DNA of 64,000 bases from Escherichia coli. GTDB lineage: Bacteria; Pseudomonadota; Gammaproteobacteria; Enterobacterales; Enterobacteriaceae. This document shows, one piece after another, positions 7,538 to 33,288 of this stretch. The position numbers and the translations under genes were made by a program. The notes beneath the pieces are model-generated. The model did not search any database. It was not told the DNA's origin and worked only from the letters and a program-made list of their open reading frames with translations. Every line of letters begins with the position of its first letter. Positions within the stretch are counted from its first letter, which is position 1. Location of the stretch: assembly GCF_003790525.1 (NCBI RefSeq), contig NZ_CP033635.1; one strand, 5' to 3'.

Positions 7538-7572
7538 GCCGGATGCGGCGCGAGCGCCTTGTCCGGCCTACA
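7538..7572. repeat. REP (repetitive extragenic palindromic) element
   Basis: gccggatgcggcgcgagcgccttgtccggcctaca matches the REP consensus family. Confidence 0.75.
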
Positions 7573-12993: not shown

Positions 12994-13395
12994 TTAGTGT
13001 GAATATTCTTCTGTAATTTCAGCCAGATCCAATGCGTTATCTACCAGCGAGGTTATCTCAAGCAGAATATCTTCAAGAGAAGATTTAAGCGATAACGCAC
13101 CGAAAACAATGTAATACTCTTCCTGTTGCACGCTGGAGATCCCTACCGATGACAACGGCATCATCTTCTGATTTCTTAATAAGAAGGTATTAAATTCATC
13201 TGGATTGCTGATACTACTTACCGGACAAATAAAGGTTTCGATGATCATTTGGCGGGAAGTAAAAAGAATATTGATTTGCAAATCGCCATAATCATTCATT
13301 TTAATAATTAATGCGCTTTCGCTATTTGTTACATCAATATTTTGTTCAGGTACAGTTTGCAGCGCCGTCGCCAGCGCCAACGGATTCCATGTCAT
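12994..13395 (-). CDS. yjfI: DUF2170 protein YjfI
   Basis: 133-aa ORF MTWNPLALATALQTVPEQNIDV... Confidence 0.85.
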   Translation of the reverse strand: MTWNPLALATALQTVPEQNIDVTNSESALIIKMNDYGDLQINILFTSRQMIIETFICPVSSISNPDEFNTFLLRNQKMMPLSSVGISSVQQEEYYIVFGALSLKSSLEDILLEITSLVDNALDLAEITEEYSH

Positions 13396-13471: not shown

Positions 13472-13505
13472 GACAAAAAAAAACCATCCAAATCTGGATG
13501 GCTTT
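13472..13505 (-). terminator. intrinsic terminator downstream of rlmB
   Basis: Hairpin ccatcca-aatc-tggatgg flanked by an A-run and a T-run (bidirectional potential) 17 bp after the rlmB stop. Confidence 0.75.
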
Positions 13506-13521
13506 TCATAATTCAGAGGAA

Positions 13522-14253
13522 CTAGCTGCGCTGACGAACCGCTTCAAATAAGCAAATTCCGGTTGCAACCGAAACGTTCAGGGAAGAAACACTTCCTGCC
13601 ATTGGGATGCTGATCAACTCATCGCAATGTTCACGGGTCAGGCGACGCATACCTTCACCTTCCGCGCCCATCACCAGCGCCAGGCGTCCGGTCATTTTGC
13701 TCTGATAGAGTGTATGATCCGCCTCGCCTGCCGTACCGACGATCCAGATATTCTCTTCCTGCAACATACGCATGGTGCGCGCCAGATTAGTCACCCGAAT
13801 CAGCGGAACGCTTTCTGCCGCACCACAGGCCACTTTTTTCGCCGTGGCGTTGAGCTGTGCGGAGCGATCTTTCGGCACAATCACCGCATGAACACCAGCG
13901 GCGTCCGCGCTACGCAGGCACGCGCCGAGGTTGTGCGGATCGGTTACGCCGTCGAGGATCAGCAGGAACGGTTGATCGAGCGAAGCGATCAGATCCGGCA
14001 GATCGTTTTCCTGATACTGCCGTCCTGGCTTCACACGAGCGATAATGCCCTGATGCACGGCACCGTCGCTTTTCTCGTCGAGATATTGGCGGTTTGCCAG
14101 CTGGATAACCACGCCCTGGGACTCAAGGGCGTGAATCAGCGGCAACAGACGTTTATCTTCACGGCCTTTTAAAATAAAGACTTCCTGAAAACGTTCAGGG
14201 GCGCGCTCCAGCAGGGCCTGCACTGCGTGGATGCCGTAAATCATTTCGCTCAT
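13522..14253 (-). CDS. rlmB: 23S rRNA (guanosine2251-2'-O)-methyltransferase RlmB
   Basis: 243-aa [33 protein letters not shown]..., SpoU family. Confidence 0.93.
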
Positions 14254-14277
14254 TAATGTACTCGTTGTTTACGTTTT

Positions 14278-14376
14278 GCCTGATGCGCTACGCTTATCAG
14301 GCCTACATGATCCCTGCAATGTATTGAATTTGCGTGATTATGTAGGCCGGATAAGGCGTTCACGCCGCATCCGGCA
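14278..14376. repeat. pair of inverted REP elements (BIME-like) between rnr and rlmB
   Basis: gcctgatgcgctacgcttatcaggcctaca and tgtaggccggataaggcgttcacgccgcatccggca in opposite orientation. Confidence 0.75.
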
Positions 14377-14433
14377 TGAACAAAGCGCATTTTGTCAGCA
14401 ATCTAACCCTCTTCTGTTTGAAGAGGGTAATGA

Positions 14434-16875
14434 TCACTCTGCCACTTTTTTCTTCGCCGCACGCTTCGCTTTGGTCGCTGCGGCTATTTTCTGCGTTTTC
14501 GCCGATGGCTTTTTCGCTTTTCTCGCGTCTTTCTTCGCCGCTTTCGGCTTCGTTTTTTTCTCGCCGCGGAAAGCGCTGTCTGGCTCAAAGTTTACCTTTT
14601 TACCGACCTGACGACGCTTGCCGCCTTTTTTACCTGCATCGCCTTTTTTCGCTTTCTCGCGCGCCGTTTTACCGACGTTGCGCGGTGCGCGTTCGCTGGA
14701 GATCAGGCTAAAGTCGATTTTACGCTCGTCCATATTAACCGCTTCGACGCGAACTTCCACGCGATCGCCCAGGCGATAAGTCTGGCCGCTGGATTCACCC
14801 ATCAGGCGTTGCCCTACCTGGTCAAAGCGATAGTAGTCATTGTCCAGCGAAGAGACATGGACCAGACCATCAATGAACAAGTCGTCCAGACGGACGAAGA
14901 AGCCAAAGCCAGTGACGCTGGAAATTACGCCTTTAAAGACGTTACCTACCTGGTCGAGCATGAAGTCACACTTCAGCCAGTCAGCTACATCGCGTGTTGC
15001 TTCGTCGGCACGACGTTCCGCCATCGAACAGTGCTGACCCAGTTGCAGCATCTCTTCCATCGAATAATGGTAGCCGCCGGTTTCAGTGGTGTTGCCCTGA
15101 TGCCCCTGCTCTTTCGCCAGCAGATATTTAATGGCGCGGTGCAGCGTCAGGTCAGGATAACGACGAATCGGCGAAGTAAAGTGCGCATAGGACTGCAATG
15201 CCAGACCGAAGTGACCACGGTTTTCCGGATCGTAAATCGCCTGTTTCATCGAGCGCAGCAGCATAGTTTGCAGCATTTCTGCATCAGGACGATCGGCAAC
15301 CGATTCCAGTAACTCTGCATAGTCGCGCGGTTCCGGCTTGTTACCGCCCGGCAATTCCAGCCCCAGCTCCGCCAGCACTGAACGGAAAGAGGTAATCGCT
15401 TCGGTGCTCGGCTTGTCGTGAATACGGAACAGTGCCGGTTCTTTGGCTTTCTCAACGAAACGCGCCGCCGAGATATTCGCCAGAATCATGCACTCTTCAA
15501 TTAACTTGTGGGCGTCGTTACGCTGAGTCTGTTCGATACGTTCAATACGGCGTTCAGCGTTGAAAATGAACTTCGCTTCTTCGCTCTCAAATGAGATCCC
15601 ACCGCGTTCTTCACGGGCTTTATCCAGCACTTTATAGAGGTTATGCAACTCTTCGAGATGCTTAACCAGCGGGGCGTACTGCTCGCGCAGATCCTGATCG
15701 CCCTGCAGAATATGCCAGACTTTGGTGTAGGTCAGACGTGCGTGAGAGCTCATTACCGCTTCATAGAATTTGTAGCCAGTCAGGCGGCCTTTCGACGAAA
15801 CCGTCATCTCGCACACCATACACAGGCGGTCTACCTGCGGGTTGAGCGAGCACAGGCCGTTAGAGAGCACTTCCGGCAGCATCGGGATAACCTGCGAAGG
15901 GAAGTACACCGACGTACCACGGTTACGCGCTTCTCTGTCCAGCGGTGTTGGCGGACGCACATAGTAGCTGACGTCGGCAATCGCGACCCATAAACGCCAG
16001 CCGCCGCCGCGTTTTTTCTCACAGTAAACTGCATCGTCAAAGTCACGGGCGTCTTCGCCATCAATGGTGACCAGCGGTAAATCGCGCAAATCGACACGGC
16101 CCGCTTTTGCTTCTTCCGGCACTTCTTCTTTCAGCCCGGCAACTTGTTGCTCAACAGCCTGCGGCCAGATATACGGAATTTCATGGGTACGCAGAGCGAT
16201 ATCAACCGCCATGCCGGTGCCCATATTGTCGCCAAGTACTTCGACGATTTTACCCACCGCTTTGGTACGGCGAGTCGGGCGTTGGGTCAGTTCAACCACC
16301 ACCACAAAGCCCATCCGCGCGCCCATGATCTGATCGGGCGGGATTAAGATATCGAAGCTCAAACGACTGTCGTCAGGAACCACAAAGCCGACGCCCGCTT
16401 CGGTAAAGTAGCGACCAACAATCTGGCTGGTTTTTGGCACCAGTACGCGGACAATACGCGCTTCACGACGACCTTTACGGTCAGCGCCCAGCGGCTGCGC
16501 CAGCACCTGATCGCCATGAATGCAGGTTTTCATCTGCTCGCTGGAGAGATACAAATCATCTTTACGCCCTTCAACCCGCAGAAAGCCGTAGCCATCACGG
16601 TGGCCAATAACGGTACCTTTCACCAGGTCGAGGCGTTCCGGCAGCGCATAGCACTGACGACGAGTGAAGACCAGTTGACCATCGCGCTCCATCGCGCGCA
16701 GGCGGCGACGCAGGCCTTCAAGCTGCTCTTCGCCTTCAATGTGCAGTTCTACCGCCAGCTCATCACGGCTGGCCGGTTTTTCACGTTTGGTTAAATGTTC
16801 GAGGATAAATTCCCGACTAGGGATGGGATTCGCGTATTTTTCAGCTTCGCGTTCCTGGAAAGGATCTTGTGACAT
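14434..16875 (-). CDS. rnr: ribonuclease R (3'-5' exoribonuclease, RNB family)
   Basis: ORF 14434..16917 trimmed to [28 protein letters not shown] (813 aa); lysine-rich C-terminal tail. Confidence 0.95.
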
Positions 16876-16913: not shown

Positions 16914-17339
16914 TCACTCCACCAGCAATAATTTATAAAGCGGTTGATTCTCTTCAACCAAATCGGCAAGCGTGTAGTTATCCAGTTCCGTAAGAAAACT
17001 TTGCACGGCCTTAGAAAGTGCCTGTTTCAACCGACAGGCAGGTGTAATGTGGCAAAACTCACTGCTGCAATTCACCAGCGATAAGGGCTCCAGCTCGCGC
17101 ACCACATCACCAATACGTATCGCACTCGCCGGTTTACCCAGACGAATGCCGCCATTTTTTCCACGAACAGCAGTCACGTAGCCGGCACGACTAAGTTGAT
17201 TGATTATTTTGACCATATGATTACGGGAGACGCCGTAGACGTCAGTCACTTCAGAAATACTGGTCATCCGCCCTTCTGGCAATGACGCCATGTAGATCAG
17301 CGCACGTAATCCGTAATCAGTGAAACTCGTTAACTGCAC
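16914..17339 (-). CDS. nsrR: nitric-oxide-sensing Rrf2-family repressor NsrR
   Basis: 141-aa [35 protein letters not shown]..., three-Cys cluster motif. Confidence 0.95.
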
Positions 17340-17543
17340 ATCAACCTCAAAAGGGAAATCGGGAAAAAATACATTTATATTGATGATAAACCAGCCACAA
17401 GCTGTGTCGCTAATTTATTTCAGTTCGGGGAAGGAAAAAAGCGAGGATTTAACACTGTGTCGGATAGCGTAATGGCTTACCCGACACAGCAATGTATCAC
17501 ACTGTTAGCCCGGCAGGCAAAATATCTGCCAGGCGTACCAGAA

Positions 17544-33193: not shown

Positions 33194-33288
33194 CAATTAA
33201 GCTAACCGTCGTTAGAATCGTCCCCTTTTTTCAGGATCCGGCATGTAGGCCGGATCAGGAACGACAAAACAATGGCCTGGAGGCTACC

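Follow-up and report, generated by a model that had tools for sequence, protein, structure and literature searches.

The 180-bp spacer between rnr and rlmB in this Escherichia coli genome almost certainly carries a canonical E. coli BIME-1, spanning positions 14277-14405 of the window, that is, of the whole 64,000-nucleotide stretch that was analyzed. This copy is an ordinary element of an already known kind and is also present in K-12; lists of E. coli BIME-1 elements go back decades. In the reading that we consider probable, what is specific to the BIME is a passenger that the cell can do without and no dedicated RNase R regulator, and an effect as an RNA barrier or attenuator, which we put at somewhat less than an even chance, would be generic. 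The discovery value is small. What the analysis adds is a corrected view of the rnr–rlmB junction in three layers: a universal, unique hairpin behind the rnr stop codon, a polymorphic BIME-1 add-on specific to Escherichia (carried by about 71% of E. coli genomes, absent from about 29%), and an ancient rlmB-proximal REP.

The spacer occupies exactly 14254-14433, and the minus strand of the window encodes both flanking genes. The rnr gene, encoding RNase R (CDS 16875..14434; profile NF008648, 1789 bits; K-12 annotation), ends with a TGA at 14436-14434, and rlmB (14253..13522; profile NF008386, 490 bits) starts with an ATG at 14253-14251. On the same strand, nsrR (17339..16914) is found upstream and yjfI (13395..12994) downstream. 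The ORF call for rnr runs to a GTG at 16917 (827 aa) and overlaps the nsrR stop codon (window 16914-16917). We set the start 42 nt downstream, at 16875, because the profile match, which begins at residue 15, and the gene as annotated in K-12 (2442 nt, 813 aa) both place it there; the overlap is thus an ORF-calling artefact. The rlmB leader AAACGUAAACAACGAGUACAUUA (14254..14276, minus strand, 23 nt) contains a weak Shine-Dalgarno sequence (GAG) and was unchanged across the four E. coli alleles aligned. Over 501 bp, the window matches strain FDAARGOS_497 at 100% identity, and genomes in the thousands at 97-99%.

The genes nsrR-rnr-rlmB(yjfH)-yjfI are treated in the literature as one operon (PMC3534368 Table 1; PMC12360218), and a known cold-shock control of this operon acts at its leader via Rho and CspA (PMC12360218). 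A sigma-70-like site upstream of nsrR (17383..17410, minus strand), a consensus match only, is a candidate operon promoter. The minus strand of 14254-14433 contained neither a promoter-like nor a terminator-like site, so that an internal rlmB promoter and an in-gap intrinsic terminator were both rejected; no hairpin in the gap has a U tract on its 3' side, and none qualifies as an intrinsic terminator. These results support the view of the initial annotation that rnr and rlmB, lying on the same strand, are probably co-transcribed. The nearest terminator is a canonical intrinsic one between rlmB and yjfI (13507..13478, minus strand), whose stem of 13 pairs leads into a run of T. It is strong and apparently bidirectional. 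A large share of the transcripts probably terminates behind rlmB, even though yjfI is assigned to the same operon in the literature. Because of this terminator, the levels of RlmB and YjfI should not be lumped together, as they had been in the initial annotation.

In the sense of the mRNA, the spacer reads post-stop hairpin, external motif, y REP, L linker, z1 REP and rlmB leader. The y-type REP (UGCCGGAUGCGGCGUGAACGCCUUAUCCGGCCUAC on the mRNA strand; 14376..14342, minus strand) has, in plus-strand reading, a GTAG at 14342-14345 and the stem GCCGGATAAGGCGTTCACGCCGCATCCGGC at 14346-14375. Its minus-strand reading is GCCGGATGCG...CTTATCCGGCCTAC (14375..14342), which corresponds to the iREP orientation on the mRNA strand in the Ton-Hoang convention. 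The z1-type REP (GUAGGCCUGAUAAGCGUAGCGCAUCAGGCA on the mRNA strand; 14306..14277, minus strand) reads TGCCTGATGCG...CTTATCAGGCCTAC on the plus strand (14277-14306), with the stem GCCTGATGCGCTACGCTTATCAGGC at 14278-14302 and a CTAC at 14303-14306 that is GTAG on the minus strand. The repeat finder returned the two stems and the REP-to-REP inverted repeat. The inverted REP pair proposed earlier for this gap is therefore real, with the REPs lying tail to tail at 14277-14306 and 14342-14376, 35 nt apart, and its description as BIME-like can be narrowed to BIME-1 (y REP, L linker, z1 REP). The REP tail CTTATCMGGCCTAC occurs in two exact copies in the gap, and four matches with at most two mismatches were found window-wide, versus 0.41 expected. 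Together, the two REPs and the linker make up 100 of the 180 nt. Elsewhere in the 64-kb window, the only other canonical REP is a y-type copy, GCCGGATGCGGCGCGAGCGCCTTGTCCGGCCTAC (7538-7571, plus strand), and a degenerate REP tail is located at about 33245-33258. The K-12 RefSeq feature table contains no REP feature at the rnr–rlmB gap, which lies at 4409096-4409274 in that genome.

BIME-1 elements are defined by inverse z1 and y REPs, GTAG, imperfect stems and a single unit, and their L linker is long, well conserved and often provided with an IHF site (PMC3333891). The element in this spacer shows all of these structural traits: its two REPs, one y and one z1, are inverse, a GTAG lies at the foot of each palindrome, each stem carries an internal mismatch or bulge, the linker is the long L linker shared with other loci, and the y-L-z1 unit is single in the 180-bp gap and does not form a tandem array. 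The single unit and the long linker rule out a BIME-2, the gyrase-binding type with y and z2 REPs, a short S linker and a tandem arrangement; a gyrase site was rejected as well, as this property belongs to BIME-2. The assignment to z1 and not z2 follows from the L-linker context and from what we take to be the z1 consensus. A TGCC|TGAT site occurs in z1 and z2 and is missing from y (PMC3333891).

The L linker (14307..14341, 35 nt) contains a core, GCAAATTCAATAYATTG, that is conserved at the yhjG/yhjE and gcd/cueO loci. A 69-nt query made of tail, L linker and tail was found in a median of at least 39 places per genome. The 29 nt preceding the y REP (UAGAUUGCUGACAAAAUGCGCUUUGUUCA; 14405..14377, minus strand) form an external motif that accompanies the y REP at other BIME-1 loci and occurs in a median of 4 places per genome. 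It could be aligned with the yhjG/yhjE and gcd/cueO gaps, where the same motif lies 5' of the y REP. It therefore belongs to the repeat, and the BIME-1 unit spans 14277-14405, or 129 of the 180 nt. A REP structure in the message of RNase R had initially been singled out as special. K-12 carries 584 REPs (PMC3333891) and the linker region recurs in at least about 40 places per genome; given this abundance of REP and BIME repeats, its occurrence in rnr mRNA is unremarkable.

The junction is polymorphic within E. coli. The long allele was found in about 71% of complete genomes, including K-12 and O157, and a short allele with a 91-bp gap in 1,580 of 5,426 (about 29%), including APEC O1, S88 and 536. 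The short gap contains the post-stop hairpin and a single REP, GTAGGCCGGGCAAGCGTGGCGCTCCCGGCA, at the position taken by the z1 REP in the long allele; the external motif, the y REP and the L linker are missing. Only the portion of the hairpin query that does not depend on the allele has a match in strain Nissle, which appears to belong with the short-allele strains. Seven substitutions, of which several are compensatory, separate the shared REP of one allele from that of the other, and the sequence at the junctions is not the same either. Judged from this alignment, the long and short alleles are not related by clean excision. The copies compared also indicate that the element is drifting between strains. 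In K-12 MG1655 (L001 6077-6295), the rlmB-proximal REP is a hybrid, GCCGGATAAACGTAGTGCATCAGGC (GCCGGAT...ATCAGGC), whose arms have lost their perfect pairing. A divergent short allele with a REP devoid of GTAG occurs in E. coli strain A10 (wood-wren), where rlmB is annotated as a frameshifted pseudogene.

A pattern scan using one genome per species was run on the Enterobacteriaceae, covering 120 loci and yielding 86 species with a measurable gap. The rnr–rlmB gap measures 59-100 nt in most genera, for example 63 nt in Salmonella diarizonae, 64-72 nt in most Citrobacter species, 63-68 nt in most Enterobacter species and 81-88 nt in Klebsiella. It measures 180 nt in E. albertii, E. whittamii, Escherichia sp. 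MOD1-EC7003 and E. coli, and in these four species the BIME-1 is colinear and nearly identical. At this junction, the external motif, the y REP and the L linker were found in Escherichia and in no other genus examined, and by this distribution they look like an Escherichia addition. A REP-like hairpin of the form GCCGGG...CCCGGC occurs at one and the same position, just upstream of rlmB, in Salmonella, in Citrobacter and in the short allele of E. coli. This common position makes the rlmB-proximal REP an old one. The layout in C. koseri, a post-stop hairpin followed by a GTAG-REP, is that of the short allele, which resembles the ancestral layout. Gap expansion occurred independently in some Kluyvera and Leclercia species (285-712 nt), and gaps of 113-173 nt with their own palindromic repeats were found in Buttiauxella, Pseudocitrobacter and others. 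Repeats seem to have landed at the rnr–rlmB junction on several occasions.

In folding predictions, a stem-loop domain of -10 kcal/mol or lower is present in the gap of all 86 species, and one of -14 kcal/mol or lower in 83 of them, with a median z of -3.7. Of the species with a short gap (roughly 59-100 nt), most have their strongest domain beginning 0-16 nt downstream of the rnr stop. The sequence families forming these stem-loops are unrelated: a CCCTCTCCC/GGGAGAGGG type in Enterobacter and its relatives, a REP type in Salmonella and Citrobacter, and others elsewhere. In 32 of the species scanned, the rnr stop is followed by a CCCTCT/AGAGGG hairpin similar to the post-stop hairpin of E. coli. 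The persistent feature of the junction is thus a strong hairpin after rnr, and not the BIME. The Enterobacter-type CCCTCACCC...CCCTCTCCC/GGGAGAGGG hairpins presumably resemble a dispersed repeat family of those genera, which makes the orthology of the post-stop hairpins uncertain.

On this basis, we propose that the external motif, the y REP and the L linker were inserted in the Escherichia lineage upstream of the older rlmB-proximal REP and downstream of the older post-stop hairpin. In the nsrR-rnr-rlmB transcript, the gap region would fold into very stable stem-loops: the predicted fold of the whole gap has a z of -6.7 relative to shuffled sequence, the y REP hairpin reaches -21.3 kcal/mol (z = -4.8) and the z1 REP hairpin -12.9 kcal/mol (z = -2.5). 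These stem-loops could be a barrier to 3'-to-5' exonucleases, a weak attenuator, or both, and this would favor nsrR-rnr RNA over rlmB RNA. Stabilization of upstream mRNA is the classical, documented role of REPs (PMC3333891). By analogy, a generic effect of this sort is the most likely one, at somewhat less than an even chance, and a contribution of the BIME to mRNA stabilization or differential expression is plausible. In strains and genera devoid of the BIME, the older hairpins would give the same effect, and the BIME would add to them where it is present. At the DNA level, the L linker would provide a putative IHF site. About 29% of E. coli genomes and all other genera examined lack the BIME part, so any role it has is non-essential, and its absence from 29% of strains makes a BIME-specific function unlikely. 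Two counterpoints should be mentioned. The long allele is little changed in E. albertii, E. whittamii and another Escherichia, which could reflect selection rather than neutrality. Conversely, the presence of a hairpin in every genus could mean that such gaps are permissive to palindromic repeats, with no function attached.

The initial annotation had suggested a stronger role, in which the REP pair would uncouple RNase R from RlmB. The BIME would then be a dedicated intra-operon stabilizer, perhaps with a feedback since RNase R degrades REP RNA. We regard this as unlikely. RNase R and PNPase are reportedly able to clear REP-containing decay intermediates, a finding attributed to Cheng and Deutscher in 2005 that counts for such a role. 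The stability of the predicted folds, the position of the element inside an operon and the conservation of the long allele across several Escherichia species also argue in its favor, as does the known stabilization of upstream mRNA by REPs (PMC3333891). However, the y REP and L linker are dispensed with in the short-allele strains, the BIME is confined to one of the genera examined, the known cold-shock control sits at the operon leader with Rho and CspA (PMC12360218), and REPs are too common for their presence beside rnr to mean much. Published transcript ends add a weak argument on the same side. Among the curated Term-seq 3' ends of Adams et al. 2021, none falls in rnr, rlmB or yjfI, and none at the REPs. 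Nominally, a lack of 3' ends at the REPs is what the initial annotation had named as speaking against its proposal; as the strong terminator after rlmB was missed too, this lack is uninformative. By name and b-number, rnr, rlmB and yjfI are absent from the SMRT-Cappable-seq, RepRanger and Chen 2015 half-life supplements. Further upstream, the Adams 2021 data set maps 3' ends to the 5' leader of nsrR and Rho-dependent termination to a region within this gene (K-12 positions 4406080, 4406146 and 4406232, corresponding to about 17297-17449 of the window), which is consistent with the leader control by Rho and CspA (PMC12360218).

A function exerted on DNA or transcription is likewise improbable. 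According to this hypothesis, the L linker binds IHF and the element serves as a nucleoid-architectural site or as an attenuator lowering read-through into rlmB. The conservation of the L core between loci points in this direction, and an IHF-like site, ATTCAATACATTG, lies at 14317-14329 with one mismatch to the consensus WATCAANNNNTTR. Matches to this consensus are nevertheless as frequent in the window as expected by chance (57 versus 50.7), and the match is no evidence by itself; that the linker probably binds IHF is suggested by its membership in the BIME-1 family. Against a DNA-level role also stand the documentation of gyrase enrichment for BIME-2 and not for BIME-1, the lack of a U tract after every gap hairpin, and again the 29% of strains that do without the element.

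A third element of the gap had been overlooked: a non-REP hairpin at 14406-14428, ACCCUCUUC-AAACA-GAAGAGGGU (14428..14406, minus strand; -14.5 kcal/mol, z = -4.95), which begins 5 nt after the rnr stop codon and has no U tract on its 3' side. It matches once in the window, versus 0 expected, and as a single-copy sequence it was found in 5,424 of the 5,426 complete E. coli genomes. Its loop differs in K-12 MG1655 (TTT-AAA-A). In the minimum-energy fold, the rnr stop codon lies inside an outer stem (14438-14432 paired with 14403-14397) that is partly built from the external motif of the BIME. The post-stop stem of the short allele is longer and reaches directly to the stop codon. As reported in PMC12306157, which cites Liang, Rudd and Deutscher 2015, REPs located less than 16 nt from a stop codon down-regulate translation via trans-translation. 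The stem of the y REP begins 58 nt after the rnr stop codon, so that the REPs of this gap fall outside the limit given in that source, and the only structure within 5 nt is the unique non-REP hairpin. This hairpin, and not the BIME, might then be the functional part of the gap: by obstructing terminating ribosomes on rnr, it would feed RNase R synthesis into the tmRNA-SmpB pathway and lower RNase R levels. Its near-universal presence in E. coli, its proximity to the stop codon and the 0-16 nt spacing of the strongest stem-loop in most short-gap species are in keeping with this idea, and the stability of RNase R itself depends on tmRNA-SmpB (PMC4042491). Even so, we consider it very unlikely: the effect published for stop-proximal repeats, as cited in PMC12306157, concerned REPs and the rnr hairpin is not one, and hairpins near stop codons are common, with 446 palindromes in K-12 by one count. 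If the idea is true, RNase R and trans-translation would be connected by autoregulation, and the BIME would only modulate the hairpin through the outer stem.

That the gap encodes a product of its own, either a REP-derived small RNA similar to naRNA4 or ES036 or a peptide from a 45-codon ORF (14390..14253, minus strand), is hardly credible: the Rfam matches of naRNA4 to the y REP (38.2 bits; gathering threshold 59.5) and of ES036/CssrF to the L linker (33.2 bits; gathering threshold 37.6) are partial and sub-threshold, reflecting repeat paralogy and not family membership, so that a small RNA gene was rejected, and the ORF, although it traverses both REPs and its TAA overlaps the rlmB ATG (TAATG), lacks a Shine-Dalgarno sequence, takes its ATG from the external motif where paralogous copies have GTG, is missing from the short allele, has no promoter match in the gap and is, from its sequence, probably spurious.

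The ordinary BIME-1 with a generic effect on the transcript thus remains our preferred reading. The long/short polymorphism offers a natural experiment for the effect of a BIME on the expression ratio of two co-transcribed genes. Among known systems, the intercistronic REP stabilizers of the malE-malF type likewise consist of stably folding REP hairpins located between co-transcribed genes, 3' of the protected gene; in contrast to these, the BIME part at rnr–rlmB is missing from 29% of strains. Stop-proximal REP regulators share with this locus a stable hairpin close to the stop codon, here 5 nt after that of rnr, but the rnr hairpin is of unique sequence and not a REP. The small RNAs naRNA4 (REP325, CssrE) and ES036 (CssrF) are similar to the y REP and the L linker, respectively, but they are paralogous repeats at other loci. 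With regard to REPIN/RAYT systems, TnpA-REP recognizes as substrates REP pairs that carry GTAG and a mismatch in the stem (PMC3333891), and the rnr–rlmB pair is of this type; the long and short alleles are not separated by clean excision, but their presence or absence between strains fits slow repeat dynamics. Finally, the rnr–rlmB copy does not differ in kind from BIME-1 elements, also called RIP or RIB elements, a peculiarity being the short upper stem-loop of its z1 REP (25-nt palindrome).
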